A program made the position numbers and the translations under genes. The notes under the pieces were generated by a model. It was not told the DNA's origin. It ran no database searches and saw only the letters and a program-made list of their open reading frames with translations. From assembly GCA_026129095.1 (NCBI GenBank), contig JAHCIT010000006.1, positions 64,235 through 128,234 on the forward strand: a stretch of DNA of 64,000 nt. The letters are read 5' to 3'. Shown here in pieces: positions 7,584 to 54,615 of this stretch; position 1 is the first letter of the stretch; each line of letters begins with the position of its first letter. The DNA is from Deltaproteobacteria bacterium. GTDB lineage: Bacteria > JAGRBM01 > JAHCIT01.

Positions 7584-7599
7584 GTGACACCAGTCACTA
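7584..7599. promoter_or_regulatory. CRP/FNR-type palindrome TGTGA-N6-TCACT in the divergent intergenic region between the adhesin gene and the radical SAM gene
   Basis: The sequence tgtgacaccagtcact closely matches the TGTGA-N6-TCACA consensus. Additional TGTGAC-like motifs lie at ~7503 and ~7541 within an AT-richer 530-bp intergenic stretch. Confidence 0.3.
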
Positions 7600-7768
7600 A
7601 TGCAGCCCTCAAACCGCAAAAAACAGGTCGTGCGAACGGGGATGAATAATATTCATATTAGCAGGACCGTTTCATTCTGATATTGCAGATTAAATAGAAT
7701 GTTTCACGCCAAAACTATCCAAAGTGACGTGACACGGCTGCTGGTGCATCGTCCTTGGCCGGGGTAGC

Positions 7769-9250: not shown

Positions 9251-9266
9251 AACGGTTTTCCTGCGG

Positions 9267-27024: not shown

Positions 27025-27081
27025 CATGGTGCCCCCGGACGGAATCGAACCGTCACGGCCGTGAAGCCAGCGGTTTTTGAG
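27025..27081. repeat. 57-bp direct repeat of the 3' portion of tRNA-Leu(CAA); putative distal attachment site of the island
   Basis: The sequence atggtgcccccggacggaatcgaaccgtcacggccgtgaagccagcggtttttgag is identical to 55824-55880. Confidence 0.85.
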
Positions 27082-33094: not shown

Positions 33095-33384
33095 ACTCAC
33101 TCATTACAGACGCCGTCCGCGAGCGCCGCGTCCTGACCTTCACCTATGATGGTTTTGAACGGCAGGTCGAGCCCTATACCTATGGAAAGCTGACGACCGG
33201 ATATGAAGGGTTGCGGGCGTTCCAGACCGGCGGCGGTTCGCGCTCCGGCAACCAGCCCATGTGGCGGCTGTTCCACGTCAACAGGATTCGCGGCCTCGCC
33301 CTGACCGAGGACCGGTTCACCAACCCAAGACCCGACTACAACCCCCAGGATTCCGACTTCCGGACCATCTGGGCGGGGGTGTGA
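33091..33384 (+). CDS. Small WYL-domain protein
   Basis: RVLTFTYDGFERQVEPYTYGKL...MWRLFHVNRIRGLALTEDRF matches the WYL-domain pattern (...Y....R.veP......WYL.a.....RtFRldRI). The ORF is 97 aa. Confidence 0.6.
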   Translation: MNSLITDAVRERRVLTFTYDGFERQVEPYTYGKLTTGYEGLRAFQTGGGSRSGNQPMWRLFHVNRIRGLALTEDRFTNPRPDYNPQDSDFRTIWAGV

Positions 33385-33387
33385 GCG

Positions 33388-34446
33388 ATGGCCAAGGGAA
33401 TAAATACTACGGGTGTACGGCTCCTTGATTACAAGGAAGTCCTGTCGTCACTCCCTGAAAAGAAGAAGCGCCACCTTCTCCTTGGGAACGGCTTCAGCCG
33501 CGCACTGCGCAACGACATTTTCTCTTACGATGCGTTGTTTGACCAGGCGGATTTCACGTCAATTGATCCCAGAATCAAGGATCTCTTCGGATCCCTTGGC
33601 ACCACCGATTTTGAAACTGTTATGCGCGTGCTTAGAGATGCATCGAACCTGATCAACGTATACTTGCCCAAAGATAAGTTGCTTGCGAATACCCTCATCG
33701 AACATTCCAATGCCTTAAAAGGCCTCTTGGCCAAAACTATTTCCGACAACCACCCCGCTCATCCAAACGAAATCAAGGAAGAGCAGTATCAGCATTGCCG
33801 CATTTTTCTGAATTCGTTCAAAGATGTTTATACGCTGAACTATGACCTTCTGCTTTATTGGACCCTCATGCACGAAGAGCTGGGAGATTCGCTTTCCAAT
33901 GATGACGGCTTCCGTACGCCAGATTCAGGTGAGCAGGAGTATGTCACCTGGGAAGTCGAGAATTCTAACAAGCAGACGGTTTTCTATCTCCATGGCGCGC
34001 TCCACTTGTTTGATGCTGGCGCTGAGCTCCAGAAATACACTTGGAAGAACACGCAGGTACGATTGATCAAGCAGATTCAAAACGCCCTCGAAGAAGACCG
34101 CTATCCACTAATCGTTGCTGAAGGAACCGCCGATGGAAAACGACGCCAGATCAAGCATAGCGGCTATTTAACGAGGGGTTTCCGCAGTCTTTCCAATATT
34201 GGCGAGACCATGATTATGTTTGGTGTTTCGTGTTCCAAACAGGATGAGCACATCCTCAAAGCGATAGAAAAGGGAAGTGGCAATGGCATCACCGATATAT
34301 ACGTAAGCATTTTCGGCGATCCCGATAGTGACGCCAATAAACGCATTATCCGCCGCGCCAAACAGATGGGAATCGCTCGGCCCAAATACCGAAAAGCATT
34401 GACCGTCTCCTTCTTTGACGCGTCAACCGCAAAGGTCTGGGGCTAA
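33388..34446 (+). CDS. SIR2-like (SIR2_2/DUF4917-type) protein
   Basis: LLLGNGFS, YTLNYDLLLYW and FYLHGALH correspond to the GAGxS, TTNYD and HLHG signatures of the SIR2-like family. The protein is 352 aa and the gene is noticeably lower in GC than its neighbours. Confidence 0.6.
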   Translation: MAKGINTTGVRLLDYKEVLSSLPEKKKRHLLLGNGFSRALRNDIFSYDALFDQADFTSIDPRIKDLFGSLGTTDFETVMRVLRDASNLINVYLPKDKLLANTLIEHSNALKGLLAKTISDNHPAHPNEIKEEQYQHCRIFLNSFKDVYTLNYDLLLYWTLMHEELGDSLSNDDGFRTPDSGEQEYVTWEVENSNKQTVFYLHGALHLFDAGAELQKYTWKNTQVRLIKQIQNALEEDRYPLIVAEGTADGKRRQIKHSGYLTRGFRSLSNIGETMIMFGVSCSKQDEHILKAIEKGSGNGITDIYVSIFGDPDSDANKRIIRRAKQMGIARPKYRKALTVSFFDASTAKVWG

Positions 34447-34448
34447 TC

Positions 34449-37400
34449 GTGAGCGATACTCTTTCTCGTCTAGACCAGCTTCGGGCCACCTGGCAGGCCC
34501 GGTTGCCGCTGTCGTCCGACGATCTCAGGCGGCTGCGCGAGCACTGGGAAATCGTTCACACCTACAACTCGAACGCGATCGAAGGGAATACGCTTACCCT
34601 CGGCGAGACCAAGGCGATCCTGATCGACGGGATCACCATCAGCGGCAAGCCGCTTCGGGAAATCCTCGAAGCCACCAATCACAAGTCGGCGATGGGGCTT
34701 CTCTACCGGCTGGCCGAGTCAAAGACGCCGCTGACGGAACCGGAAATCCTGGACCTTCACCGGCTGATCCTGAACGCGATCCGGCCCGACGACGCCGGGC
34801 GCTACCGCACAGATACGGTTCGGGTCGGTGGTTCCCGTCATGTATTTCCGAACCCGGCCAAGGTCCCGGACCTGATGGCGGAGTTTGTTGCCGGGATTGC
34901 GAAGGAAACTGGCCATCCGGTGAAAATCGCCGCCCGCGCCCACTTCCGGTTTGTCGCCATTCACCCGTTCGCCGACGGCAACGGACGTACAGCCCGTCTG
35001 CTGATGAACCTGCTGCTCATGAGGTCGGGCTATCCGCCTGCGTTCCTGCCGGTCGAACGGCGGGGCGAGTATTACGACCTGCTCGAAGAGTCTCATACAA
35101 AGGGGACGGGCCGCTTCGAATCATTCATCGCCGAATGCGTGGCGGAGTCTCTTGAAGATACGCTTGAGGGGTTGGGCGGAGTGGATGCGGCTCCGGCGGC
35201 TCCTGCCGCCGCTCCGGCAACAAAGACCAGACCGGCGGGCACGGCCGGGCGCTCGTCCCGGTGGAACGAGGAAGACCTCTCGGAGGGACCGGCCGTGGCC
35301 TTGCTGGAAAAGCTGGGCTGGACATTCATCGAGAGCGAACGCCTGAATTCCGACCGGGATACGAACCGGGACGCGATTCTGGCCAGACGGCTGGAGAAGG
35401 CGCTCCGGAGGCTGAACCCGTGGCTGTCGGACGACAATCTCCACCGGGCCGTCCGCTCGGTCACGCATATCCCCGCCACGGGCCTGATCGAGGCGAACGA
35501 GCGGGTTCACCGGACCCTCGTGCATACGCTGTCGCTGGAACAGGACCTGAACGACGGACGCGGGAAGATCGGCCGCGACGTCCATTTCATCGACTTCGCC
35601 AATTCGCGGAATAACGAGTTCGTCGTCACCCGGCAGTTCGATGTCCAGGGGGCCAATCAGCGGCGGATCTTCGATGCCGTCTGCTTCGTGAACGGTCTCC
35701 CGCTGGCGATCATCGAGTGCAAGTCGCCCACGCTCGGCGAAAAGTGGTTCGAGGAGGCGATGAAATCCCTGAACCTCTATCAGGAGGCGAAGGACGAATA
35801 CGCCGGTCAGGGCGTCCCGAAGGCGTTCGAAGCGACACAGGTGGTCGCCGCGCTTGCGGGCTCGTCCGGGGCAAAACTCGCCACCGTGCTGACTCCGGAC
35901 CGGCATTATGCCGAGTGGCGGGAGCCGTTCCCACTATCGCGGGAGGCCGTCGCTGGTCTCGTCGGCCGCGAGGTGACGCCACAGGATCTTCTGATCGCGA
36001 GCGCCCTTTCGCCGGAAAGCCTGCTCGACCTCGTTTCGAACTTCGTCGTTTTTGAACCCGAAGGGGCGAGGCGCGTCAAGAAACTCGCCAAGTACCAGCA
36101 GTTCATCGCCGTGAACCGGGCGCTAGACCGCATCAGAACCGCTCCTGACCCGGCGGCCCGTGGCGGCATAGTCTGGCACACCCAGGGCTCGGGCAAATCG
36201 CTCACGATGCTCTGGCTGGCGGTGAAACTGCGCCGGCTGGCGGCTCTGGAGAACCCGTCCATTGTGATCGTCACGGACCGTACGGATCTCGACACCCAGA
36301 TCAGCGAGACCTTTGAGCGGTGCGGCTTCCCGAATCCCCAGCAGGCGAAAAGCGTCCGGCATCTGGCCGAACTACTCGGGGCCGGATCGGGCCTCACGAT
36401 CACGACAACGATCCAGAAGTTTCAGGGCGTGTCCGGCGGCAAGCAGACGGCCCTGAACGAGGCGTCGAACCTGTTTGTCCTTGTCGATGAGGCGCACCGG
36501 ACCCAGTACAAATCGCTCGCGGCCCGCATGCGTCAGGCCCTTCCGAATGCCTGCTTCCTGGGTTTTACCGGAACGCCGATCGACAAGAACGACCGTTCCA
36601 CCCCGAAGGTTTTCGGCCCCTACATCCATACCTATCCGATCCAGCAGGCGGTGGAAGACGGCGCGACGGTTCCCATTTATTACGAAGGCCGTCTGACCGA
36701 GCTTCACGTCGAAGGCTCGTCGCTCGATGCGGTATTTGGCCGGGTGTTCGCGGACAAGTCGGATGATGAAAAGGCGGCCATCCGCAAGAAGTTCGTCACC
36801 TACGAGGCGGTCGCCGGGGCTCCGAGCCGGATCACGCGAATCTGCACGGACCTCGTCGACCATTTCGAGAAGTTCATCCGGCCGAACGGATTCAAGGCGC
36901 AGGTTGTCGCCTGCACGCGGGACGCCGCCGTCACCTACCTTGAAACGCTGGAACGGCTGGGAGCACCCGAGTGCGCGCTCATCATGTCCGGCACCCATAC
37001 GGATGAGGACCGGCTCGCACGGCATCACAAGTCCAGGGAACAGCAGAAGGAGCTGATCGCCCGGTTTATCAACAAGGACGATCCGCTTTCAATTTTAGTC
37101 GTCTGCGACATGCTGCTGACCGGCTTCGATGCGCCGGTCGAACAGGTGATGTATCTGGACAGCCCCCTCAAAGAGCACAATCTTCTCCAGGCAATCGCCC
37201 GCGTGAACCGCACGGCCGAAGGCAAGACTTACGGTCTTGTGGTGGACTACTGGGGCATCTCCGATGAACTCCAGGACGCGCTGGCCGTTTTCGATCCCAA
37301 AGACATTCAGGGCGCGCTGGTGGAGATTTCCAGCGAGCTGCCGAGGCTGGAGAACCGGCACCGGCAGGTCATGGACCTGTTCAGGAAGGTGGACCGCAAA

Positions 37401-38258
37401 GACCCGGAAGCCTGTCTCCGGATTCTGGAGCCTGAAGACCGGCGGGCCGAGTTCGAAGCGAAGTTCCGCAAGTTCGCCCAGAGCATGGACATGGTTCTGC
37501 CCGATCCCGCCGCCCTGAAGTTCCAGAAAGACCTGACCTGGCTTGGCAAACTCCGCGTCATGGCCCGTGCGCGGTTCCGCGATGATAGCCTCGATCTCTC
37601 CGGCTGCGGCGCAAAGGTCAAAAAACTCATTGAGGAATACGTACGAGCTGACGAGGTTGTCCAACTCACGGAGCCGGTTTCGATCTTCTCGAAGCGGTTC
37701 GATGAAGAAGTGGACAAGCTCAAGTCTCCGGAGGCGAAAGCCAGCGAGATGGAACACGCCGTCAAGCACGAGATCAGTGTCAAGATCTCCGAAGACCCCG
37801 TGTTCTACCAGAAACTCTCGGAACGTCTGGAGGAGATTATCCGTGACCGCAGGGAGCATCGTATCCAGGCGGCAGAGGCGATCAAGCGGCTGCAACTGGT
37901 CCTCGACGAACTCCGTGGCCGTCATCAGCAAGCGAACTCTTTGGGCCTAAGTGATGAGGAACTAGCGTTTTTCAACGCGATCCAGGCGCCGGGGAGTTCC
38001 AATACGCTCAAGGAGGAACCCGCTCCATATGGGAATGCTCACTCTCCCCAAGAGCAGGAACGGGCGAAACTCGCCGCGGAAGTTTTCGCCATGCTTAAAG
38101 AACTCGCCGTCATTGACTGGGTCCGCAAAGAGGATGTCCAGAGGGAAATGCGCCGTCAGGTCAAGCGGCGACTCCGCTTCGCTGGGTTCGGCGATGATGA
38201 GACAGAAAAACTGACCACCTCGCTGATGGATCTCGCCAGAGCACGGCTCGCGAAGTGA
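34449..38258 (+). CDS. hsdR: Type I restriction enzyme R subunit (HsdR) with an N-terminal Fic (AMPylase-type) domain fusion
   Basis: The HsdR part has the Walker A motif HTQGSGKS, the DEAH box LVDEAHR, an HsdR N-terminal region (ALLEKLGWTFIE) and a C-terminal helicase domain. The first ~230 aa contain the Fic motif HPFADGNGRTARLLMNLLL, joined by an Ala/Pro-rich linker. The total is 1269 aa with a GTG start. Confidence 0.85.
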   Translation: MSDTLSRLDQLRATWQARLPLSSDDLRRLREHWEIVHTYNSNAIEGNTLTLGETKAILIDGITISGKPLREILEATNHKSAMGLLYRLAESKTPLTEPEILDLHRLILNAIRPDDAGRYRTDTVRVGGSRHVFPNPAKVPDLMAEFVAGIAKETGHPVKIAARAHFRFVAIHPFADGNGRTARLLMNLLLMRSGYPPAFLPVERRGEYYDLLEESHTKGTGRFESFIAECVAESLEDTLEGLGGVDAAPAAPAAAPATKTRPAGTAGRSSRWNEEDLSEGPAVALLEKLGWTFIESERLNSDRDTNRDAILARRLEKALRRLNPWLSDDNLHRAVRSVTHIPATGLIEANERVHRTLVHTLSLEQDLNDGRGKIGRDVHFIDFANSRNNEFVVTRQFDVQGANQRRIFDAVCFVNGLPLAIIECKSPTLGEKWFEEAMKSLNLYQEAKDEYAGQGVPKAFEATQVVAALAGSSGAKLATVLTPDRHYAEWREPFPLSREAVAGLVGREVTPQDLLIASALSPESLLDLVSNFVVFEPEGARRVKKLAKYQQFIAVNRALDRIRTAPDPAARGGIVWHTQGSGKSLTMLWLAVKLRRLAALENPSIVIVTDRTDLDTQISETFERCGFPNPQQAKSVRHLAELLGAGSGLTITTTIQKFQGVSGGKQTALNEASNLFVLVDEAHRTQYKSLAARMRQALPNACFLGFTGTPIDKNDRSTPKVFGPYIHTYPIQQAVEDGATVPIYYEGRLTELHVEGSSLDAVFGRVFADKSDDEKAAIRKKFVTYEAVAGAPSRITRICTDLVDHFEKFIRPNGFKAQVVACTRDAAVTYLETLERLGAPECALIMSGTHTDEDRLARHHKSREQQKELIARFINKDDPLSILVVCDMLLTGFDAPVEQVMYLDSPLKEHNLLQAIARVNRTAEGKTYGLVVDYWGISDELQDALAVFDPKDIQGALVEISSELPRLENRHRQVMDLFRKVDRKDPEACLRILEPEDRRAEFEAKFRKFAQSMDMVLPDPAALKFQKDLTWLGKLRVMARARFRDDSLDLSGCGAKVKKLIEEYVRADEVVQLTEPVSIFSKRFDEEVDKLKSPEAKASEMEHAVKHEISVKISEDPVFYQKLSERLEEIIRDRREHRIQAAEAIKRLQLVLDELRGRHQQANSLGLSDEELAFFNAIQAPGSSNTLKEEPAPYGNAHSPQEQERAKLAAEVFAMLKELAVIDWVRKEDVQREMRRQVKRRLRFAGFGDDETEKLTTSLMDLARARLAK

Positions 38259-38261
38259 TCC

Positions 38262-38990
38262 ATGGTACTTCGTTCCTTCCAGTTCGGTAACACCCGAATC
38301 AGCTACCGGACGATCCGCTCCAGCCGGCGGACCACAATAGGCATTGCTGTAAAACCAGACGGGAAAGTTGTGGCTTCGGTGCCACAGGGCATAACGGTTT
38401 CCAAAGTGGACCGGGCCATTCGGTCCAAAGCCCGTTGGATCTACCAGAAGCAGCTTGAGGCGCGGGAGTTACAGTCCCAGCAGCCTTCCGGCAGGGAATT
38501 CGTTGACGGCGAGACGTTCAAATATCTGGGCCGGGGGTACCGGTTGCGGATTTCAGTGGGTCACCAGTCCGAGGTTCGTCTGATGAATGGCCGCTTAAGA
38601 GTCATCGTGGCAAACAAGCCCGCGAGTGGGCGCAAGCCTGAGCTGGTCCGTTCCGCCCTGATAGAATGGTATCGACAGCATGCGATCCAGCGTCTCGCCG
38701 AACGAATGGATTACTGGTCCAGAAGGATGGGGATATCACGTCCCAGAATGTTGCTGGGAGACCAGAATCGCCGCTGGGGGAGTTGTAGCGCGAAAGGCGA
38801 AGTCCGGATCAACTGGCGGATTATTCAGGCCCCCATGAGGATCGTAGACTATGTGATTGTCCACGAACTGGTCCATCTGATCCATCCGGATCACTCAAGG
38901 GCATACTGGAAAGCGCTTCATCGTGTCTTGCCGGATGCGCCTCAACGAAAATCCCGCCTGTATCTCATCGGCCCCGAGCTGATGTGGTGA
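38262..38990 (+). CDS. YgjP-like (DUF45/WLM-type) zinc metallopeptidase associated with Type I RM
   Basis: The HEXXH motif is in IVHELVHLIHPDHS, and RWGSCSAKGEVRINWRI is typical of DUF45. The gene starts 4 nt after the hsdR stop. Confidence 0.75.
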   Translation: MVLRSFQFGNTRISYRTIRSSRRTTIGIAVKPDGKVVASVPQGITVSKVDRAIRSKARWIYQKQLEARELQSQQPSGREFVDGETFKYLGRGYRLRISVGHQSEVRLMNGRLRVIVANKPASGRKPELVRSALIEWYRQHAIQRLAERMDYWSRRMGISRPRMLLGDQNRRWGSCSAKGEVRINWRIIQAPMRIVDYVIVHELVHLIHPDHSRAYWKALHRVLPDAPQRKSRLYLIGPELMW

Positions 38991-39016: not shown

Positions 39017-39469
39017 TCAGTCGTCTTCGAGCATGCCGAACTCGTCCATCTCTTTCATCCATGAATACAATGACCGGCGCACCGGCAGGCAGGCATCTTT
39101 CCGGACCACAAAATCGGCAATGTCCATGTAGCGAATCCGTGGCAGCTTTGCCGCGGGAATACCCGCGTTGTCCCGGCAGTTTCCGGTCAGTTCCACTTCA
39201 TGAATTGCCAGGGTGATGCTGCCGGTGAATGCCGGCGGCGACATCACCAGAAGTGATTTTTCCGACACCGGTAATCCTGTCTGCCTGAGAAAACTGGATT
39301 CAATTTCCTCCGGTACATCTTCGAAGGCCATCGTCACCCCTCCGGGCAGATCCCAGACCGCTCCGGTCTTCACGACGAGAATCTGACAGTCGTCGGTCAT
39401 GAGTAGACCGCGAGCATGGATTTCTGGGGGCTTCCCCGTTATAGGATTTCGGGCGGTTGGTGGGTTCAT
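39017..39469 (-). CDS. Nudix-fold-like protein with a degenerate Nudix box
   Basis: WDLPGGVTMAFEDVPEEIESSFLRQTG aligns to Gx5Ex7REUxEExGU, but the REx2EE catalytic residues are replaced by SSx2RQ. Confidence 0.35.
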   Translation of the reverse strand: MNPPTARNPITGKPPEIHARGLLMTDDCQILVVKTGAVWDLPGGVTMAFEDVPEEIESSFLRQTGLPVSEKSLLVMSPPAFTGSITLAIHEVELTGNCRDNAGIPAAKLPRIRYMDIADFVVRKDACLPVRRSLYSWMKEMDEFGMLEDD

Positions 39470-39475
39470 GACAGA

Positions 39476-41203
39476 TCAACGAACGCCATAAACCGTCAGA
39501 TTCGCGACCCACGCTTCGCCGGCCGAACCCATGCCCTGTGTCAAACCCCCAAGGAACTGCATCCAGCCCCCCGCGAACTGGCCGTACGGAGACGGCGGGA
39601 CGAACATGGAGGGACCGTCACCGGGCCAGCGGTCACGTCTTCCGGAAAAAACCTCGGAACTAGGCCCCATGCATACATTGACCCAGGTGTTCGTGGGCCA
39701 GCTCCAATGCGGTCCGAAAGCATCCAAGTAGTTCGCCCCCGGCGAACCGGTGGTCTGAAACCAGTCGATTCCAACCCGCGGCAATACGCCTGAACTCGAA
39801 GGTACCCAGACGGATGCACAAATCATCACCGGAGTGCCCCGCTGGAGTGCCGGCTTTGCCTCCGCGACGGCGACGCCGACGTCCGTTCCGGTGACGACCG
39901 TCAGCTTCACGGCGCCAATCGTCGTATCCAAGGATTTTGAGCAGACGTTGTATCTCGGCACGAAATTCACCGGATCATCGACGGTTTCGCAGTAAAATTT
40001 CGTAAAACCGTCGCGTTTGGCGCACCACGACGAGACCACTGACGTTCCTGCCGGGGGATTGGGAAAACTGTTGCAATCAGGCGCGGCCGGAGGGGTTGAG
40101 GGGACCGTTACCGTAATATTTATGAATGCAGGTGCGGCGGAATCCACGGCGTTCGAGCAGTCGAGCCGGTAGGTCGTCGAGACCAGCGGTGTGACAACCG
40201 TATTACCACCGATGGGAGTAACGGAGCCGATACCGGTAATTGTGCAATTCGTCGCGTTGTTGACGGTCCACGTCAGCGTCACCGGCTGGCCGGAAATCAC
40301 CGACACCGGATTCGCCGCAAACAGTACGATCTCAACCTGCGGGACGGGCGGCGGCGGGGCGGGCGTCACGGTGACGGTCACGCTCCGTGTGGCCGGGCTG
40401 CCCGCCCCGTTGCAGTTCAGCGCATAGATCGTCGGTGCGGTGGGCGTGACGGTTTTGCTCCCGCTCGGGATGGTGACGCTGCCGACGCCGTTATCGATGC
40501 TGCAAGCGGTGGCGTTCGTCACGCCGGACCACGCGAGCGTTGCCGTGCTGCCCGCCGTGATCGTCGCCGGCGAGGCCGTGAAAGTGCCGATACCGACTGG
40601 CGGCGGCGGGGCGGGCGTCACATTGATGGTGATGCTCTGGCTTGCGCTGTAACTGTCGTTCCGGCAGGTGACGAGGTGGGTGCTTCGAAGGAATACGGGG
40701 GAAATCGGGTACGACCAAACCGGTTCGTACTCAACCTCGTGATTGTCCAGCGTGCAGTAATCGGCATTCATCGCAGACCAGTACAGCGTAACGGTTCCAC
40801 CTTCAGGGACCGGATTGGGTGAAGCATATGCATAATTAAATGTAACCGGCTCTGGCGCGGGCGGATCCGGCCGACGTTCAACAGTGACTTCCGCCTGGGT
40901 GCTTCCGGCGACGTTCGAACAGGCGAGTAGGTAGGTGACGGGAGGGTAAATCTGCACAACGATACTGTCCGACTCCGGACCGACTTCGGTACCGTTCAGC
41001 ACGCAGCTATGTGCGTGCTCTACATTCCATGTGATGGTGGTCGCCTCTCCGGGTGAGACCTTATCGGGGGTTGCGGTGAGGCTGCCGATTACGGGGGGCT
41101 TTTCCTGTACACAGCCGGGCTGGAGTACCCAAAAGAGCATCAGCATGGCGGTTCTGGCGGCGGATTTCATATCAAATCTCCTCGGATGGGGCGAAGCCTT
41201 CAC
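39476..41203 (-). CDS. Secreted/lipoprotein with tandem Ig/FN3-like beta domains separated by Pro-rich linkers
   Basis: The N-terminal signal MKSAARTAMLMLFWVLQPGC and the repeated TVTVTPAPPPPV linkers are present. A Cys-containing C-terminal domain follows. The ORF is 575 aa. Confidence 0.55.
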   Translation of the reverse strand: MKASPHPRRFDMKSAARTAMLMLFWVLQPGCVQEKPPVIGSLTATPDKVSPGEATTITWNVEHAHSCVLNGTEVGPESDSIVVQIYPPVTYLLACSNVAGSTQAEVTVERRPDPPAPEPVTFNYAYASPNPVPEGGTVTLYWSAMNADYCTLDNHEVEYEPVWSYPISPVFLRSTHLVTCRNDSYSASQSITINVTPAPPPPVGIGTFTASPATITAGSTATLAWSGVTNATACSIDNGVGSVTIPSGSKTVTPTAPTIYALNCNGAGSPATRSVTVTVTPAPPPPVPQVEIVLFAANPVSVISGQPVTLTWTVNNATNCTITGIGSVTPIGGNTVVTPLVSTTYRLDCSNAVDSAAPAFINITVTVPSTPPAAPDCNSFPNPPAGTSVVSSWCAKRDGFTKFYCETVDDPVNFVPRYNVCSKSLDTTIGAVKLTVVTGTDVGVAVAEAKPALQRGTPVMICASVWVPSSSGVLPRVGIDWFQTTGSPGANYLDAFGPHWSWPTNTWVNVCMGPSSEVFSGRRDRWPGDGPSMFVPPSPYGQFAGGWMQFLGGLTQGMGSAGEAWVANLTVYGVR

Positions 41204-41659: not shown

Positions 41660-44617
41660 TCAGTCGATGCCGTAATATGCGAGCGTGAAAAGGCCCAACT
41701 GGTTCTTTCGCTTTTGGTTCTCAGTTAAATTATCGTCATCTTTCACGGTTCGAAGTGCCGTAATCGCAGCCTGTTGAAAAACACTGCTTGGTAAAAATGC
41801 GCCTGATGAGACTGACTGTTCCATAAATATCTGGACAAACGTACGAATCAGGTTTGTCTGTAGCGGTGCGAGACCGGCAATAACACCTCTGGCTCCCTGG
41901 GCCAGGAATGCATCGGCCACAGTCTCCTTGTGCAGATGGTCGGTTTGCCGGCGGTAGGCAGCTGAACATGCGAACAAGGCCACGGTAGTACCGTTAAAGG
42001 AGATGCCTGATGATTCGATATCCGTGCGACGAAGGCGTAATCCGCCCGGCAATGCGAGGCTGGAACGGGCCGGATCCGCTTCATCGAAACCGTGAGTAAT
42101 AATCGTGGCCAACTGGCTTCTGGAGATTGCCTGCAATACGTCTTGAACGGAGGAGATGTCCCAAGAATTACCTGGTGGTGAAGAGTATACCATTATCGCA
42201 CGATACAGCTCTGGCTCAAAAAGATTATAATTCCCGGATTTCGCGCTTAAGGTCGTTCTGTTGGTATCAGTAGCGAAGAACGGAGAGACCATGGCAGGGG
42301 TGATTACAGAAGACTGGAAGTTTTTGATGAAAGGTTCATTCTTCGATCCACAAGGAAGCCACTGTATGGGTAAATCCATCAGCTCGGCATCCACACTAAG
42401 GTATATATGCTTGGGTTTATGCTGATTTAGACAGGAGAGTAAACTGTTAGGGAAAAGCTTCTGTCCGATGATCAGCAATTTCCTATATAGCAAGTCCACT
42501 ATTTTTTCATTGGGTTGTTCATCCTTGGTACAAAGATGAATGAGATTTGGCAACGCCTGATCGGGATGGACAAGCTGTCTAAGAAAATCCCTTACAATAT
42601 TGTCCTTTTGAATACATTCTCGGATTTTGGCGAAATCAGATTTTCTCGCGTTATCTAGTTTTATGATATCTGTTTTACAGTTATCGTTTCCATTGTTTCT
42701 GGTTAACAAACAGAATGAAGTATTGTTTTCATTGATAAAGTAATGAACGGCAATGGATCCAGGATTTTTATTTACAAGATCGTATATCCTTTGACCGCCC
42801 CAAAGCTTGAAATATAATTCCGAAAGCTGATCACCTGCGGAGACGGTCGAAGCTCCATTTAAAACAGACTCTACATAGCCAGCAAATACCGGTTTTTCAT
42901 TCAACGATATATTGAGTAATCTTGTCCTCTTATTGGGTATCCACTGCATCTGCTTCTGAACAAGACCCGTATACAGCTTGCACAAGCCAGATGGAGTACC
43001 TCTTCCAGACTTTTTAATCAGCATACGGGTCACTTTCAAAATCTCACTCGAATGAAACAAACTATTACTGTCGGAAATTTTCTGCATTTTCGTGACTAAA
43101 TCATTGATCGCGTCCGTCTTGATGGACCGGACACTCTTTAGCTTTAATTTGATAGCCTGTAAATGCGAATTGTATAGTTGAAATGTTTTTGAAGGATTGT
43201 CATCCGATGGAATATATAATAGATTTTCCCAATTATGTCTTTTTAGTTCCTTTACTTCAGTATGGTTATTGTTTTGATCAAGGATCCCAAAGTTTGCGCT
43301 CTCACCGAGGCCATGCCATGTCGTTCGGTCGCCGTACACATGTTTCAAATAGGCAATAAAGTAATTCGCCCGTTGTCGTGTCTGCCCATCGTTAATCCAG
43401 TTCGACAGCATGAACTGGTAATGAAGCAGTTCAACGAGTGCATTGACATCAAGATTCCTGGACACCAGTTCGAGCTGCCGGTCGATAACTTCAGATGCAA
43501 GGCTGAATTTCATGGAGTGAAGCAGACGTGTCAATACGTAGCGTACATTTTTTGCTGAGAAAGGTTCGCTTGAGTTTTGGGCGGTAGCTTTAGCGGTTGA
43601 TGGGTCAGTGCATGACAATATCGAATTAATATCCGAGGACACTTGACATTCCAGAGGTGCTGCTTGATGCGACAAAAGAATGGGTGAAGGATTCGCCAGT
43701 TGGGTATCGATCTGATCAGCTTCAGCGGATAAGACCTGCTTTTGAGGCTGATCGAGGCTTGCGCGGTTACTTGCTAATTTGAGAATGGAGGCGCGATTAT
43801 TCCAGTCTCCATACAAGTAATATTCCCCAACCTTAAGATATTCCATAGTATTATTCGCAAATGGCGGATGTTTTCCTGCACTGATAACAGGATTCAGACT
43901 GGACCATAGCGATTGGATCGCAGTATCCATGTGACTGAGTTTAAGAACAGATATGATTAAAACCGGATATTCTTCTTTTAATATGATAAGTTTGGAATGG
44001 ATTCCTGATGGAGTGGTATTTGCGGGACCGGACAATGCGCAGTGGAGTAACTCTTTTAGTCCGTCATCGTCAATTATCATCTCAGTGTCTGTACGAAGGT
44101 GGAGAACTTGGTGGGTCAGCCAGTATGAATAATGGCGCACACTCCGCTGGGAAGAAATTGTGCCTGGAAACTGAATGCTACCGAGAATCTTTTTCACCGT
44201 GTTCGCGATGCCTTTGACCTTGGCAATCGTGTTTTCATGTTGCTCTGGCTGAACCTCCAGTACGGAAGAGGCGAGAAACATGATCGCCATTCCCAGCCCG
44301 GCGCGGTCGAGTGCATTGAGATGGGAAAATCTGTGAAATCCGGCGACTAAATCGCCAAATGCATTTACCTTTTCAACGTCGGTGTAATCTTCGATTGAGT
44401 TTAAAGAATCTGATAGCGGATCTGGGCTGGTGTTATTATTAACTATGTGGTCGACGATCGTCATTGTTTGTAGACCAGGAGTAACTAAATTCAGGTGGCG
44501 ATTGTTATCAGGCCCCGTTGGTGTCTTCTGCTTTTTGAAGACGGAACAGCCATTTAATATTCCGACGCATTTTAGAAGTTGGTTTGTCTTGAAAAATAAC
44601 TGAAGTCGTGGACTCAT
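41660..44617 (-). CDS. Large protein with C-terminal CHAT (caspase-like) protease domain; the true start may be the internal Met near 44466 to avoid overlap with the upstream gene
   Basis: The C-terminus has ATIITHGFDEA (His motif), TTVALFACSAAYR (catalytic Cys motif) and VADAFLAQGARGVIAGLAPL, which match the CHAT-domain signatures. The ~700-aa N-terminal region is unassigned. GC content is about 45%. Confidence 0.65.
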   Translation of the reverse strand: MSPRLQLFFKTNQLLKCVGILNGCSVFKKQKTPTGPDNNRHLNLVTPGLQTMTIVDHIVNNNTSPDPLSDSLNSIEDYTDVEKVNAFGDLVAGFHRFSHLNALDRAGLGMAIMFLASSVLEVQPEQHENTIAKVKGIANTVKKILGSIQFPGTISSQRSVRHYSYWLTHQVLHLRTDTEMIIDDDGLKELLHCALSGPANTTPSGIHSKLIILKEEYPVLIISVLKLSHMDTAIQSLWSSLNPVISAGKHPPFANNTMEYLKVGEYYLYGDWNNRASILKLASNRASLDQPQKQVLSAEADQIDTQLANPSPILLSHQAAPLECQVSSDINSILSCTDPSTAKATAQNSSEPFSAKNVRYVLTRLLHSMKFSLASEVIDRQLELVSRNLDVNALVELLHYQFMLSNWINDGQTRQRANYFIAYLKHVYGDRTTWHGLGESANFGILDQNNNHTEVKELKRHNWENLLYIPSDDNPSKTFQLYNSHLQAIKLKLKSVRSIKTDAINDLVTKMQKISDSNSLFHSSEILKVTRMLIKKSGRGTPSGLCKLYTGLVQKQMQWIPNKRTRLLNISLNEKPVFAGYVESVLNGASTVSAGDQLSELYFKLWGGQRIYDLVNKNPGSIAVHYFINENNTSFCLLTRNNGNDNCKTDIIKLDNARKSDFAKIRECIQKDNIVRDFLRQLVHPDQALPNLIHLCTKDEQPNEKIVDLLYRKLLIIGQKLFPNSLLSCLNQHKPKHIYLSVDAELMDLPIQWLPCGSKNEPFIKNFQSSVITPAMVSPFFATDTNRTTLSAKSGNYNLFEPELYRAIMVYSSPPGNSWDISSVQDVLQAISRSQLATIITHGFDEADPARSSLALPGGLRLRRTDIESSGISFNGTTVALFACSAAYRRQTDHLHKETVADAFLAQGARGVIAGLAPLQTNLIRTFVQIFMEQSVSSGAFLPSSVFQQAAITALRTVKDDDNLTENQKRKNQLGLFTLAYYGID

Positions 44618-45584
44618 CTCCGGGAACGATTAAGACTTCATTTAGTGTTGCGTTGCTCCAAACTGGCTTCGCCAAAAGACTAAAACCTTTAGGAGGGAGA
44701 GAATTGACGATCCTGAATCTGACTGCCATATTATCCTTTTCAGACTTTTCAAATACCTCTAATTTGAGAGTGGTATTGGGGTTGAAACGTAATATTATAA
44801 CTCCCTCCCTGACCCCTCTAGGTCTTTTGTGAATAGCCCTATCCTCCCCCATCTGAATTTGGGCTTCATGGCGTATGGAGGGGGGAAATAAATTAGGATG
44901 CACATAGGTGCACTCTTTGAAAGCTGACGGTTCGGCGAGATCGTCTTGCGGGTCGTCTTCTTCTGCGTCCGCCATATCCGGATTGGTAGCCGCCTCCATT
45001 ATTTCCTGTATCGCTTTCCGGATCCGGTTGTCGATCTCGATGGATCCGGGGACATCCAGAGGAAGCAGTCGTGCGAGGCTTTGGTTTACTCGGGTTGTTT
45101 CGGCTGCACCCCCCAGAATGCAATTTTCCTGCAAGTCGACGTATTCAACCAGGGCGCGGGAAACCTGGGCGTAATCTTCCGGGGTGACTTCACCGATTAC
45201 CGATACGCCGGAGTTCCCGGTGAGTGCGCGATGCGGTACCGTGACGGTCAGATTGACCTTGGCATGGAAGTCTTCGTGGATTGCCGGATACAGGGGAGCG
45301 ATGGCCGCAGGGTTCCCCGTTACCAGCGGGACGATCTGCGGGGGAGGGTGTTGGGTATCAACCGGCATGCCGTAGTCCGCGCCCGTGATCAGGAAGCAGC
45401 AGCTGCCGGATTCCGCTGGACTGTCTCCGCCGCAAACAATGACGGAACCGTGCGCAAGCCCGCCAGCGGTTTCATCCGTAGTAGTCATTGCCTTCTCCAG
45501 ACGAGTGAGCATATTTTTTGCGTTGAACTTATCGAGTAATTGGTTCTCTTCAGCTTTTGAATATCCGGTACTCATTTGGTACAT
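44508..45584 (-). CDS. Hypothetical protein
   Basis: A 358-aa ORF between the ECF sigma gene and the CHAT gene on the same strand, with overlapping junctions. No motif was recognised. Confidence 0.5.
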   Translation of the reverse strand: MYQMSTGYSKAEENQLLDKFNAKNMLTRLEKAMTTTDETAGGLAHGSVIVCGGDSPAESGSCCFLITGADYGMPVDTQHPPPQIVPLVTGNPAAIAPLYPAIHEDFHAKVNLTVTVPHRALTGNSGVSVIGEVTPEDYAQVSRALVEYVDLQENCILGGAAETTRVNQSLARLLPLDVPGSIEIDNRIRKAIQEIMEAATNPDMADAEEDDPQDDLAEPSAFKECTYVHPNLFPPSIRHEAQIQMGEDRAIHKRPRGVREGVIILRFNPNTTLKLEVFEKSEKDNMAVRFRIVNSLPPKGFSLLAKPVWSNATLNEVLIVPGDESTTSVIFQDKPTSKMRRNIKWLFRLQKAEDTNGA

Positions 45585-46222
45585 TCTCCTTGGGACTTTT
45601 CAATTTCGTCTAAATAACGATGAAGGCCCCCTCTAAGGCTAAGGGCGGCCTGTCTCTTGCGTTTTCCATCTTCGTCGCCAACGAATTGGGCGCTGATGTT
45701 TTTAAGCTTCTCGATCAGGTTATCCTTGCGGCGCGAGATGGTCGCCTCGCTAACGCCACCCAGATCGCATTTGAGTAACCGGTAGGTCAGTTCTTTCCGG
45801 TAGATTCCGTAAAGCAGCTTTTGGTCAAACTCGTCCAACTGTTCCCTCAAGAGGTCATAAATCTTATCTGCATCCGGGTCCGATTCCTCGCCGGAAATCG
45901 CCGGACCGGTATTTCCAATATCATCGGTAAGGGGATCTGTCGCAACCGGTATGGCGTGTTTTTCTTGATCACGTTTCTCAGCCCGGAGAATATCGCTCAT
46001 CCTCCATTTAAATAGGACCCAGATTTTTGAATTAACTATATCCCCTATGAATATGTTCGCGTTTTCAAGCGTCTGGCGCGTAGCTGTTATGCGTTGATTC
46101 TGATATACGGATAAAATGACTTGGCTGAAATCATCTTCAATCTTTTCCCGGCTTTTATACGTAGTTCCATAGAAGCGTATGAACGCCCGGTAAAGATCTT
46201 TGAGCCTGGTCTCATCCATCAT
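45572..46222 (-). CDS. ECF-type sigma-70 family RNA polymerase sigma factor
   Basis: Region 2-like IEDDFSQVILSVYQNQ and region 4 HTH LTYRLLKCDLGGVSEATISRRKDNLIEKL are present. The ORF is 216 aa. Confidence 0.6.
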   Translation of the reverse strand: MMDETRLKDLYRAFIRFYGTTYKSREKIEDDFSQVILSVYQNQRITATRQTLENANIFIGDIVNSKIWVLFKWRMSDILRAEKRDQEKHAIPVATDPLTDDIGNTGPAISGEESDPDADKIYDLLREQLDEFDQKLLYGIYRKELTYRLLKCDLGGVSEATISRRKDNLIEKLKNISAQFVGDEDGKRKRQAALSLRGGLHRYLDEIEKSQGECTK

Positions 46223-46731
46223 ACTGTACGCGCCCCGATTCGTTGATGCTCAACATACCGGTAGCGGCTCTTCATCAATCTTGCCAAAACGGTGGGACTT
46301 AGCCGGCCCAAATAGGTCCATTCATCAATATGAGGTGGGGGGAACGGGAGCCCAAAGCATTCCAGATCGGCAATCAGAAACAAAGGTACATTAGGAAGTG
46401 CAGGCTGACGATCCTCAATATCGGTATCGGAACTGATTCCGAGAATGGCGGTGTCGTGAGGCCGACTGTCATATGTTTTCCTATAGTCACACTCTGCGCT
46501 GTCCCTATTTGTGTAGAACCATAAAATGCGGTTTGAGATACCGCTTGATAGAACGGCCCCTAGACCATTGCGACGCCATGCACCTGCCGCCAGGTATTGA
46601 ACACCGACAGCGGCCTGAGTCTCTGTGGCTAACGATATGTTGCCCATATTGGGTGGCACATGGCCGGTCGGTGCTACCGGAGTTTCTTTCGACGCCAAAG
46701 CCCTACGGATCTTTTCGATTAAGTCTTTCAA
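46219..46731 (-). CDS. Hypothetical protein, first gene of the ECF-sigma/CHAT operon
   Basis: A 170-aa ORF whose stop overlaps the sigma gene start. No motif was recognised. Confidence 0.45.
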   Translation of the reverse strand: MKDLIEKIRRALASKETPVAPTGHVPPNMGNISLATETQAAVGVQYLAAGAWRRNGLGAVLSSGISNRILWFYTNRDSAECDYRKTYDSRPHDTAILGISSDTDIEDRQPALPNVPLFLIADLECFGLPFPPPHIDEWTYLGRLSPTVLARLMKSRYRYVEHQRIGARTV

Positions 46732-47067
46732 GGCGTCCTCCCTTAATGGATTTGGGAAAAGTTTACTGGTTATGTTGATCGTCGTCTAGACTATGCACCG
46801 CCGCTGGCTTCGCTAACCTCCAGAAAAGATCGTCTGTTACGTATTGAAGTCTGGGAGACTCGTCCGGGCGTCGGCCGGAGGAAGAGTCCCCATCTCTTGC
46901 CTAGGATAACGAAGCGTTACGCCTGATTTTGCACGTTACACAGGATATTTTTTAATGCCTAGATTTCTTTAGTGATTCCAGCTGGTTACTGTGCTTTTGT
47001 TTTTTTGATGTGAAACTGGAAATCTGGCGGAATCGGGCCGTTTACCTTTTCGAGAGGTAAACATCGC

Positions 47068-47715
47068 ATGTCCACCCCCTACCGCTTCGCGAATCTCGAC
47101 TACGGCAATTTCACCGGCGCCCTCAATGGCGAGCAGGTGTTTCCCGTCACGATAAACGGTTTCCGCCGAATCTGGTCGTCTTCGGACGGCTTTGCCGGGA
47201 ATGCCCGGCTGATGCTGGTGCCAGCCGAGAGTTCGTCGGTGGTGGCCACCACCTTCGGGGTGTCCGATCCAGAACTGCTGGATGGCCTGAAGGCGATCGA
47301 GGAATATTCTGGTGGCGTTCAGCGGGCCATCCGCTCGGAAGCGGTCGTGCAGTGGCGGGATACACCGCTCCCGGAGGCATTCAAGGAAGTTCTTGCATAT
47401 CGTTATTGGAGCCCGGCGGCTGCAAGCCGAGTGATCCGGAATCAGCCGATATACTGGAGCCAGGCGGCGGCAATCCTGATCGCCTGCCATCGGGCCGGTG
47501 GGCTCAACTTCGTCGACGACTTCATCCGGAGCACCGGCGGCTGGGGTTCTACCTGGCTAGATGACCGGCAGGCACCGGCCGGCCCCTGGGATCTTTCGGA
47601 TGCAACGCGTCTGGAACTGATCGTTGCGCGGGAGAAGCTGCTCGCGCTGTTCCAGCCCAAATTGCGAATCGCTCCCGGCGTAACCTATCAGCATCTGAAC
47701 GGGAGCGGCTGCTGA
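47068..47715 (+). CDS. Hypothetical protein
   Basis: A 215-aa ORF divergent from the CHAT operon. No motif was recognised. Confidence 0.45.
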   Translation: MSTPYRFANLDYGNFTGALNGEQVFPVTINGFRRIWSSSDGFAGNARLMLVPAESSSVVATTFGVSDPELLDGLKAIEEYSGGVQRAIRSEAVVQWRDTPLPEAFKEVLAYRYWSPAAASRVIRNQPIYWSQAAAILIACHRAGGLNFVDDFIRSTGGWGSTWLDDRQAPAGPWDLSDATRLELIVAREKLLALFQPKLRIAPGVTYQHLNGSGC

Positions 47716-49224: not shown

Positions 49225-49785
49225 CTATGCCCCGGAGCCGTTTAAGAGGTCAAAATAGGAGACCGGCACGGAGTCCTCGGGGTTCAGTTTTAAGATCCGT
49301 GCGACTTCCTCGAACTCCGCAACGGTGTCAGCGCGATCCTGTCCGGAAATGACGGTTTCAATCTCGACGAAGGTGCCGAGCCCCTCGACGTCATCGAGGT
49401 GAATGCGGGTATTACGGAATAGGAACAGATGGCGTGTTTTCCTGACCGAACCCTTCGTGCCCAAGGCCTGTTCCAGGATTGCCTTGAGGCCTTCCAGCGC
49501 CGTTGAGTGGTAGACGAAATATTCGCTTTCCCGGCCGCCCGGGACGTCCGACCGTCGATAACTAATCAGTTCACCGCGCCCGTCACCAAATTCACGTAGC
49601 TTCAGGCGGGCATGCTCTGCCTGAAAGAACGTGTCGCACTGATGCAGCAGGCCCATATCTCGGGCACCCAGCTTACGAGTCTTTCGTTCAATGGCCGCTA
49701 TGTCACCGTACCGGAACTTCGCTTCGATATTTTTCACTGTCGCCTCGTTCGCGCCATCTTCGAACAATGGCAATTGGCCTTGCAA
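49225..49785 (-). CDS. CYTH-domain protein (class IV adenylate cyclase/CyaB-thiamine triphosphatase family)
   Basis: The ExExK signature is in KNIEAKFRY, followed by FVEIE and acidic clusters typical of the triphosphate tunnel metalloenzyme fold. The ORF is 186 aa. Confidence 0.6.
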   Translation of the reverse strand: MQGQLPLFEDGANEATVKNIEAKFRYGDIAAIERKTRKLGARDMGLLHQCDTFFQAEHARLKLREFGDGRGELISYRRSDVPGGRESEYFVYHSTALEGLKAILEQALGTKGSVRKTRHLFLFRNTRIHLDDVEGLGTFVEIETVISGQDRADTVAEFEEVARILKLNPEDSVPVSYFDLLNGSGA

Positions 49786-49935
49786 TTTATTGTGGAACTG
49801 GTCCGAAAAACTGCTATAATTTCTTTACTTCTCGGGTGCTGTCCGCTGCCATTTGGCAGGGCCCTACCAAACGACTCGGCCTCCAAACCAATGGGCGCCG
49901 GGTCGTTCCATTAGAATTATCAACGATTTTGAAAC

Positions 49936-50505
49936 ATGAATGTCTATTTGGTCCGGCATGGTCAAACTCAACCAAACATCGATGGTCCGACGGGCGTCGT
50001 GCAGGGGCAGCTCGACACTGACCTTAACAATGCAGGCGAAAATCAGGCGACTCAGCTTGCGAAGGAGTTGGAGAAAATCTCTTGGGAAGCTGTGTACAGC
50101 TCTACGTTAAAACGAGCGATTCGGACGGCAGAGATTTTGGTTCGCGGCCGGCACCCGGTTCTCCAGGTCGCCGGTCTTAACGAACGGCACTGTGGCGACT
50201 GGCAGGGTCGAAAGCGTTCTGATCTTGCTTGCGAGCTGGGATACTCGGACCTGATTGCATTCTGGAAAGCGCTCGGGCCTCATTTCGCTCCACCTAGAGG
50301 GGAAACATTCGATCAGATGGTAAGCCGGTCCGTAGCGACCTTTGAGCAGATCATCTCGGGCCACCCAAGAGATTCGAATGTCCTGCTGGTATCGCACGGT
50401 GGGCCGATTCGGGCGATAACCGGTCACCTCAGCGGGCTGTCGATAGAAGAGGTCTGGCAAATGCGTGGGCCCGAAAATTGCGAGGTCATACGAGTCGCAG
50501 TGTGA
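49936..50505 (+). CDS. Histidine phosphatase (phosphoglycerate mutase family) protein
   Basis: The N-terminal motif is VYLVRHGQT (RHG), with a conserved His in VSHGGPIRA. The ORF is 189 aa and lower in GC. Confidence 0.7.
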   Translation: MNVYLVRHGQTQPNIDGPTGVVQGQLDTDLNNAGENQATQLAKELEKISWEAVYSSTLKRAIRTAEILVRGRHPVLQVAGLNERHCGDWQGRKRSDLACELGYSDLIAFWKALGPHFAPPRGETFDQMVSRSVATFEQIISGHPRDSNVLLVSHGGPIRAITGHLSGLSIEEVWQMRGPENCEVIRVAV

Positions 50506-54243: not shown

Positions 54244-54615
54244 ATGAATCCGGGCACACTGACGCTGGCCGATCTCCTGCAATCCCCGGAACGGATTGCG
54301 GACCTGCCGGTTGAATCGGTGCCGTCCTTTCTGGCTCAGCTGACCACGCTGCAATCCGGTCTGTATGCGAGGCTGCTGCTGCACCCGGCAAGACCACCGG
54401 TAGAGGCCGAGACGAATGAAGACGACCGGTGGCTGACTGCCGAAGAGGCGGCTCCGCTCCTCGGCGTGACGCCCCGGTGGCTCTATACTCGCTGGAGGCA
54501 GCTCCCGTTTTCCAGAAAGCTTTCCCACAAGGTGCTGCGCTTTTCGGAGAAGGGCATTCGCCGGTATCTGGCGGGAAAGGCCGGGAGACCGGTCGCTGTT
54601 GAGGTGAACCGGTGA
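54244..54615 (+). CDS. xis: Excisionase/AlpA-like HTH DNA-binding protein
   Basis: EEAAPLLGVTPRWLYTRWRQLPFSRKL...VLRFSEKGIRRYL is a helix-turn-helix of the excisionase type. It sits immediately upstream of, and overlaps, the integrase. Confidence 0.55.
   Translation: MNPGTLTLADLLQSPERIADLPVESVPSFLAQLTTLQSGLYARLLLHPARPPVEAETNEDDRWLTAEEAAPLLGVTPRWLYTRWRQLPFSRKLSHKVLRFSEKGIRRYLAGKAGRPVAVEVNR

Follow-up and report, generated by a model that had tools for sequence, protein, structure and literature searches.

In this study we have analysed a 64,000-nucleotide window of contig JAHCIT010000006.1, from a metagenome-assembled genome (MAG) deposited as 'Deltaproteobacteria bacterium', and describe within it a tightly packed cassette of four co-directional open reading frames (ORFs), here called genes A, B, C and D in the order in which they are read, on the minus strand at positions 41660-46731 (all positions are those of the window; the operon proteins include NCBI locus tags KIT79_10055 and KIT79_10060). 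Gene D encodes a large protein that ends in a caspase-like CHAT protease domain, and gene B a protein that probably belongs to the sigma-70 family. The interpretation that we favour, tentatively, is that this operon constitutes a protease-gated sigma-factor switch, independent of clustered regularly interspaced short palindromic repeats (CRISPR) and probably defensive, an interpretation that draws on analogy with characterized systems and on the finding of the same gene order elsewhere.

The orientation, coordinates and sizes of the four ORFs, as listed in the original prediction made from this sequence alone, were confirmed. Gene A (46219-46731; 170 aa), the first gene of the operon and without a known family, starts with a TTG codon preceded by a strong Shine-Dalgarno sequence (AAGGGAGGA), and is joined to gene B (45572-46222; 216 aa) by an ATGA stop-start overlap. 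Gene C is joined to B by a second ATGA overlap if it begins at Met4, giving a protein of 355 aa (44508-45575), the same size as the NCBI entry, as opposed to 358 aa when read from 45584; genes A, B and C are translationally coupled. The product of gene D (41660-44464) is a 934-aa protein in NCBI, with a start at 44464 that lies 43 nt past the stop codon of C; the frame is open to 44617, and the resulting 985-aa version would overlap C by 110 nt. The start at 44464 is probably the correct one, so that the overlapping of genes originally proposed for the whole operon stands for A/B and B/C but probably not for C/D. At the local base composition stop codons are expected at 5.15% of codons, and the chance of an open frame is 1e-4 for 170 codons, 1e-5 for 216, 7e-9 for 355 and 3e-22 for 934. 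Because frames of such length are open in DNA of 47% G+C, and because they are accompanied by a ribosome-binding site and ATGA overlaps, we regard the operon as real.

The composition of the operon is foreign, and we take the operon to have been horizontally acquired. The G+C content of the cassette is 46.8% (38 to 59% in 500-bp windows), and at third codon positions the G+C fraction (GC3) of its genes is 0.46-0.52, compared with 0.7-0.8 in typical host genes, which have an overall G+C content of 63%. The contrast of about 45% with flanks of about 65%, to which attention had been drawn originally, is therefore real, but it is less steep locally: the DNA next to the cassette has 55-61% G+C, and 62.9% is reached only outside the genomic island on which the operon lies (see below).

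The C-terminal 230 or so residues of D (41747-42424, minus strand) form a CHAT domain of clan CD with an intact His-Cys dyad, as had been predicted. Residues 732-957 match Pfam PF12770 with 30.0 bits, above the gathering score of 24, and His842 (in the motif ITHGF; codon 42092-42094) and Cys884 (in FACSA; codon 41966-41968), both verified at the codon level, are the sole invariant columns in an alignment, A1, of the CHAT region of D with 15 distant CHAT proteins. When the profile built from this alignment, which is dominated by those 15 sequences, was compared with solved structures, the TPR-CHAT chains of Craspase came first (1.7e-17), followed by Desulfonema ishimotonii Csx29 (6e-9) and separase (1e-4). 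An exhaustive HMMER search of 1.84 billion representative proteins returned 16 matches to D at E<=1e-3, D itself included; the other 15 are all confined to residues ~690-956, and the N-terminal ~650 residues have no detectable relative among these representatives. The nearest CHAT relatives are also large proteins, with N-terminal parts that lack a Pfam domain. Within D we found no tetratricopeptide repeat (TPR) match in the N-terminal region (Pfam), no SAVED or CARF match in Pfam or PADLOC, no match to any model of the PADLOC defence library and no transmembrane helix (Kyte-Doolittle maximum over 19 residues, 1.44). A search of PDB sequences with D gave nothing significant, the only CHAT match being DdvA (8ROT) at E 0.27 and over the CHAT core only. 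Searches of plasmids and of viral contigs did not find the protein and, in a word-indexed search of a database of 5.8 billion proteins, D, B and C were each singletons, retrieving only themselves.

The product of gene B is probably a diverged sigma-70-family protein of the extracytoplasmic function (ECF) type. The TIGR02937 (sigma70-ECF) profile is matched with E 6.7e-5 and 22.6 bits, residues 29-175 of B lying on profile positions 29-163 of 165, that is, across the whole profile, and in alignment B is colinear with ECF sigma factors across regions 2.1-2.4 and 4.1-4.2. Weak matches to a PHROG sigma factor (E 0.011) and to the PADLOC 'HTH' model PDLC01153 (E 4e-4) are in line with this, while a search of PDB sequences gave nothing significant. 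The AlphaFold 2 single-sequence model of B is all-helical, with five helices, a linker at residues 90-115, four further helices and a C-terminal helix, at a predicted local distance difference test score (pLDDT) of 50; such a pattern is to be expected of two helical sigma domains connected by a linker, but confidence in the model is low. We propose that B may be a working sigma factor.

Genes A and C encode orphan proteins. For A there was no match in Pfam, PADLOC or PHROGs, a single, non-significant NCBIfam match at E 0.041, and nothing significant among PDB sequences; for C, nothing significant was found in Pfam, NCBIfam, PADLOC, PHROGs or PDB sequences. The C protein is acidic (48 Asp+Glu against 35 Lys+Arg), with an acidic stretch near residues 200-225. 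Its AlphaFold 2 model, of pLDDT 40, suggests a mixed N-terminal region and then three helices, which the acidic linker connects to a beta-rich domain at the C-terminus; only this domain (residues ~255-350) attains a pLDDT of 52-65. A beta-sandwich identity (TRAF, MATH or ToxA) was considered for this domain and set aside, the Foldseek matches being generic and uninterpretable, with none at E<=1e-3.

The order of the genes was found again at a second locus. One distant relative of D, the 1169-aa protein P0008, is encoded on the Joint Genome Institute metagenome contig Ga0105237_10001956 (locus L010) and is the only distant relative of D for which a locus was retrieved; searches of metagenome and viral contigs for another, P0004, found nothing. 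The L010 operon has the same four-gene order and orientation as that described here, encoding proteins of 103 aa, 199 aa (an ECF sigma factor), 235 aa and, last, the 1169-aa CHAT protein, with gene overlaps of 11 and 4 nt. Its CHAT protein is likewise large, with an N-terminal region that lacks a Pfam domain, and the two CHAT cores are homologous (pairwise phmmer 2.5e-14 between D and P0008; Smith-Waterman z=25.6). The first genes are marginally similar, A matching the 103-aa protein with BLASTP E 0.016 over 100 aa and a Smith-Waterman z=3.2, a score reached by 2/200 shuffles. The sigma factor of L010 is a bona fide ECF sigma factor, with 52.5 bits against the TIGR02937 cut-off of 42.9 and 42 bits for Sigma70_r4, whereas B is sub-threshold and is weakly similar to it (z=1.8); no similarity is detectable, by contrast with the CHAT cores, between the third genes (235 versus 355 aa) or between the N-terminal parts of P0008 and D. 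By our reading only, and with no family match behind it, the 235-aa protein has at its N-terminus a stretch (HYVEGDLPAEQAGEVEAMI) that resembles a class I anti-sigma domain. Genes near the L010 operon encode Z1, HATPase_c_3 and DUF4407 proteins, which we take to be of defence type. We know of no description of this operon in the literature.

A looser form of the same association was found in MAGs of Terriglobia (loci L007-L009), where an ECF sigma gene overlaps the gene for a cytoplasmic TPR-CHAT protein of ~970 aa. The gene that follows in L008 and L009 has weak anti-sigma/zf-HC2 matches (E 3.5e-4 to 7.6e-4, below the 100-bit cut-off), and no CRISPR array is present in the retrieved DNA of L007 or L009. 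These loci therefore resemble the operon described here in that an ECF sigma factor is tied to a soluble CHAT protein without CRISPR and, in two of them, accompanied by a separate, weakly anti-sigma-like gene. They differ from it in gene order, which is sigma factor, CHAT protein, anti-sigma-like gene, and in that their CHAT proteins have clear TPR repeats and CHAT matches of 207-218 bits, neither of which is true of D; the relationship of the CHAT domains is distant (hhalign, 90 columns, E 1e-3). Each of the three loci has two sigma/TPR-CHAT pairs (in L009, for example, at 95-6016 and 7257-10753), and in L009 one pair is followed by the weak zf-HC2/anti-sigma gene and then by an S8 subtilase gene. 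In L007 and L009 the region of that gene has about ten 24-nt coding repeats. The Terriglobia loci look like a CRISPR-independent arrangement of sigma factor, CHAT protein, anti-sigma factor and second protease.

Sigma and CHAT genes are thus syntenic elsewhere, and on this point the original prediction survives, if thinly, the refutation that it had itself named. A bona fide ECF sigma factor occupies the same position in L010, and others stand beside the Terriglobia TPR-CHAT genes, which speaks for a specific partnership of sigma factor and CHAT protein. Together with the type III-E locus L001 (see below), these loci suggest that a sigma factor, an inhibitor and a CHAT protease recur as a set of three whose partners are interchangeable. 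We hypothesize that D is a soluble cytoplasmic CHAT protease which would be kept inactive by its large and unique N-terminal region, and that this region, possibly together with A, would sense a signal, most likely phage-derived. The activated His842/Cys884 site would then cut an inhibitor bound to B, cleavage would free this ECF-like sigma factor, and B would redirect RNA polymerase to its target promoters, probably those of its own operon and of other island or host genes. By analogy, C is the best candidate for the inhibitor and/or the protease substrate, being favoured by its position, which is like that of the 235-aa gene of L010, and by its acidic inter-domain linker, although A might also bind B. 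A more ambitious extension of this scheme is possible but rather doubtful, namely that the operon and L010 represent an undescribed, CRISPR-independent, four-gene immune family in which a fast-evolving sensor domain without TPRs directly recognizes a phage component and sigma release switches on defence genes of the island.

A number of observations weigh against the proposed switch and account for the caution with which we word it. The chain of events, from trigger to substrate and phenotype, is drawn by analogy. As the proteins are orphans or singletons, conservation cannot vouch for function and, since every component but the CHAT core is an orphan, the claim is one about architecture; the detectable homology of D to other proteins appears to be that of this core only. 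The B protein falls below every curated sigma-factor threshold (22.6 against 42.9 bits for TIGR02937) and is not matched by Pfam Sigma70_r2 or Sigma70_r4 at E<=1; the ECF sigma factor of the original prediction is an interpretation of a match that is statistically significant and full-length but sub-threshold. Against a small local sigma profile (hhalign and hmmsearch) B aligns in the region 4.2 helix-turn-helix only, and a Foldseek search with its low-confidence model gave nothing significant, sigma-H and sigma-E being among the top matches at E 0.6-3.8. Neither A nor C has detectable anti-sigma features or a zinc-binding HxxxCxxC motif, and neither is similar to Csx30, to Csx31 or to the 235-aa protein of L010. 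By eye, no ECF-type promoter (AAC-N16-17-CGT) is recognized upstream of A. Finally, the four-gene synteny consists of one metagenomic locus, together with the more distant TPR-CHAT loci.

A different arrangement was also considered, in which D is an effector protease with an ordinary regulator. It would be an executioner or processing protease of abortive-infection type that acts on host proteins or on pro-toxins, the latter being C, A or both, and B would be a helix-turn-helix or sigma-like regulator that is not gated by proteolysis. Beyond TIGR02937, the above-noise signals of B are indeed of helix-turn-helix type (PADLOC 'HTH' PDLC01153, E 4e-4; Pfam HTH_50, E 0.023), and the two-part layout of C with its acidic linker is what might be seen in a cleavable pro-protein. 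There is precedent too, as the CHAT and caspase proteases of a type III-B cascade cut many proteins and cause toxicity independently of the sigma factor (10.1101/2023.06.23.546230), and Csx30 has been discussed as a possible toxin (PMC10028731). However, the TIGR02937 match of B spans regions 2 to 4 and so extends beyond a helix-turn-helix, and a bona fide ECF sigma factor is found at the same place in L010 and beside the Terriglobia TPR-CHAT genes. Moreover, an identity of C or A as a gasdermin, a defence toxin or another known defence effector is unsupported, since neither matched any PADLOC model. We consider this alternative unlikely, although it survives better than the other two.

The setting of the operon bears on whether it is defensive at all. 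As had been suggested for a mobile island, the operon is cargo of a genomic island integrated at a tRNA-Leu gene. The tRNA-Leu(CAA) gene (55826-55912, minus strand; ARAGORN) holds the proximal copy (55825-55880) of a 56-bp attachment (att) repeat, and adjoins a tyrosine integrase gene (54612-56387, plus strand; Phage_integrase domain, E 3e-18); the distal repeat at 27026-27081 is an exact 56-bp copy of the 3' part of the tRNA gene. The island between the repeats measures 28.7 kb and has a G+C content of 56.3%, compared with the 62.9% outside it. The integrase ORF reads on through the tRNA gene in antisense, giving an apparent length of 591 aa. An Rfam scan at the gathering threshold reported no tRNA, although ARAGORN had found tRNA-Leu, and no other Rfam family reached threshold. 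At 29800-38990 the island carries a type I restriction-modification operon that encodes HsdM, an uncharacterized 184-aa protein, HsdS, a 97-aa WYL fragment, a DUF4917/SIR2-like protein, HsdR (1269 aa, with an N-terminal Fic domain) and a YgjP-like metallopeptidase, and the embedded DUF4917/SIR2-like gene matches PADLOC PDC-S21 with E 7e-121.

It is improbable, in view of this setting, that the operon is a non-defensive module, for instance one concerned with stress or development, or recently acquired and poorly adapted cargo with no current role. HetF-type CHAT proteases act in cell differentiation. The proteins of the operon are orphans, their codon usage is strongly foreign (the GC3 values given above), and no defence-library model was matched by A, C or D, all of which would fit such an explanation. 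On the other hand, none of the four frames is interrupted, the operon has kept its ribosome-binding site and its translational coupling, and D has a conserved catalytic dyad; the operon shares its integrative island with restriction-modification and PDC-S21 genes, and its L010 counterpart lies beside genes for Z1 and HATPase_c_3 proteins, which we presume to be of defence type. The reading of the operon as a probably defensive, protease-gated switch is tentatively retained.

Other features of the operon and its surroundings may be noted more briefly. The presumed promoter region is the upstream intergenic DNA at 46732-47067 (minus strand), which separates A from a divergent gene on the plus strand at 47068-47715. 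Upstream of A, on the minus strand, it holds two copies of GTAACG (46939-46934 and 46920-46915, 19 nt apart) and one of GTAACA (46840-46835); their spacing is unlike that of a standard ECF -35/-10 pair, and they could be a binding site for a regulator. Sigma-70-type promoters and terminators were no more frequent than in shuffled sequence. Within the operon, positions 44960-45409, which code for the N-terminal half of C, have 56-65% G+C compared with 33-53% in the remaining cassette, a mosaic that could reflect recombination of a host-like with a foreign segment; an antisense ORF of 197 aa in C (44946-45539) is probably a by-product of this high G+C content. No flanking repeats or transposon bounding the low-G+C cassette itself were found, nor any paralogues of A-D in the rest of the window.

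Downstream of D, past a gap of 456 nt, genes for 575-aa and 150-aa proteins lie on the same strand (39017-41203, minus strand), with G+C fractions of 0.56-0.61; neither has a Pfam or PADLOC match, and the 575-aa protein has no PDB sequence match. At 49225-50505, inside the island, which holds several other uncharacterized genes as well, a CYTH-domain gene on the minus strand and a gene for a histidine phosphatase on the plus strand diverge from one another. At 4915-5762 there is a tandem repeat of 318 bp (2.7 copies, 90% identity) over the ORFs at 4834-6029, unrelated to the operon. The largest ORFs of the window are those for the HsdR-Fic protein, a 1014-aa protein and D; the 1014-aa ORF is unassigned, lies outside the island and has no PDB sequence match. 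There is no gene of Cas7-11 size in the island, and no CRISPR array was found in the island or anywhere in the 64-kb window, which is part of a contig of 259.6 kb, in agreement with what had been stated originally. Family-library scans of neighbouring genes found no cyclase.

The absence of these elements matters for the comparison with the type III-E CRISPR effector complex Craspase, to which the operon was first likened as having the same cast of proteins. In Craspase the TPR-CHAT protease Csx29 cleaves Csx30, which is an inhibitor of the sigma factor CASP-sigma/RpoE (PMC10028731; PDB 8EEX, 7Y9X). The operon resembles this system in placing a large protein with a C-terminal CHAT domain beside a sigma factor of ECF type, in this case the probable one B, and a pair of proteins without an assigned fold, in the closeness of profile A1 to the Craspase TPR-CHAT among solved structures, and in the logic that we propose for it, a protease that would cut a sigma inhibitor. 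In the sense of homology, however, the cast is not the same. Authentic type III-E loci, recovered via partial TPR-CHAT sequences from PDB alignments and subsequent genome scans, are matched by the NCBIfam models for Csx29, Csx30, Csx31 and the III-E sigma factor with scores of 230-900 bits. That of Desulfonema magnum, for example, gave 719 bits for Csx29 (NF041237; true Csx29 proteins score 719-904 bits), 229.5 bits for CASP-sigma (NF041236), 380 bits for Csx31 (NF041235) and 543 bits for Csx30 (NF041234), with 2243 bits for Cas7-11 (NF041225). When the same models were applied to the operon, A and C gave nothing at E<=1 with any of them, NF041234 and NF041235 included, and B nothing at E<=1 with NF041236, being matched by the generic TIGR02937 only. 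The D protein reached 22.7 bits with the Csx29 model (cut-off 300; E 3.8e-5), over positions 514-628 of 670, or ~115 residues of CHAT core only, and hhalign of D against Csx29 likewise aligned 115 core columns only.

The original suggestion that the two uncharacterized proteins might be Csx30 and Csx31 was also pursued by profile-profile comparison, and was rejected: hhalign of A and C against mini-profiles of Csx30 and Csx31 gave probabilities of <=0.1%. Because neither the family models nor hhalign connects these proteins with their supposed counterparts, the operon falls outside the Craspase accessory module, and the likeness is architectural. The proteins differ in size (Csx31 ~380 aa and Csx30 ~560 aa in Craspase, compared with 170 and 355 aa here), as does the order of the genes, and the N-terminal region of D, unlike that of Csx29, has no TPR match and no homologues. 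In addition, Cas7-11 and a CRISPR array are absent from the window, and an effector guided by CRISPR RNA cannot be the activator here. As judged from these sequence comparisons, the resemblance to Craspase is one of architecture and probable logic, and not of family membership beyond the protease core. A type III-E locus of Candidatus Kuenenia hertensis (L001, 8339-16316) encodes Csx29 followed not by Csx30, Csx31 and the III-E sigma factor but by three other proteins, one of 410 aa with weak sigma-like matches, an uncharacterized one of 253 aa and one of 514 aa that weakly matches an RsrA-type anti-sigma motif; the sigma and inhibitor partners of Craspase may be exchangeable. On plasmid AZO_p2 of Azospirillum lipoferum 4B (L011, 4740-13744), a gene for a CHAT protein distantly related to P0008 overlaps a preceding gene for a 146-aa hypothetical protein and adjoins cas6, cas2, cas1 and a TIGR03986 RAMP gene, and so represents another association of CHAT with type III systems.

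A second precedent is the DdvA-DdvS pair of Myxococcus xanthus (PDB 8ROT), in which DdvA, a 991-aa TPR-CHAT anti-sigma factor, is paired with the ECF sigma factor DdvS; the pair governs the genes of a defence island, and the CHAT dyad of DdvA has been proposed to trigger sigma release (PMC11506125). The operon is similar in that a CHAT protein of ~1000 aa stands beside an ECF sigma factor, or in this case the ECF-like B. However, DdvA spans the membrane once, its N-terminus forming a zinc-binding anti-sigma domain and its TPR-CHAT region lying in the periplasm, while D has no transmembrane helix, which rules out its identity as a membrane anti-sigma factor like DdvA; by eye, the N-terminus of the 934-aa D has no cysteine and so no HxxxCxxC motif, and genes A and C are additional to the DdvA-DdvS plan. 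It is consequently the least probable of the explanations considered that D is itself the anti-sigma factor, with an N-terminal region that binds B, CHAT autoproteolysis on a signal that frees it, and A and C as accessory sensors or chaperones, for although DdvA-DdvS provides the precedent, DdvA was the sole (non-significant) CHAT match of D in the PDB search and the Terriglobia sigma genes directly overlap TPR-CHAT genes, DdvA was not among the matches of profile A1 at E<=1, and gene C stands between B and D just as a separate 235-aa gene stands between the sigma and CHAT genes of L010.

The protease-gated switch that we propose would thus join a growing group, as bacterial immunity is being found repeatedly to act through sigma factors under protease control (Craspase, CalpL/T/S, the SAVED-CHAT cascade and DdvA/DdvS). 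To our knowledge, the trigger in almost all characterized cases is a CRISPR effector or a cyclic-nucleotide sensor. Immune proteases are coupled to sigma factors in the SAVED-CHAT/PCaspase/PCc-sigma cascade and in CalpL-CalpT-CalpS (10.1101/2023.06.23.546230), and the operon is like these systems in encoding what may be an immune protease with a sigma factor and small partners, linking proteolysis to transcription. The SAVED-CHAT and CalpL proteases are, however, activated by cyclic oligoadenylates through SAVED, for which, as for CARF, D has no match. Systems that couple an immune protease, of CHAT or another type, to a sigma factor are therefore already known; what appears to be new here, as far as the sequences indicate, is an operon that is independent of CRISPR, has an orphan N-terminal region without TPRs and partners unrelated to Csx30 and Csx31, and has at least one architectural cousin. 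If functional, its four genes would offer a compact model for finding the activator of a bacterial caspase-like protease and the targets of the sigma factor that goes with it. It would also mean that integrative islands can carry a protease-sigma output with them in the form of a small cassette. Compared with the known systems, it would be a self-contained CHAT-sigma system with an unrelated sensor of ~650 aa, in which the same output has been coupled to a new input.

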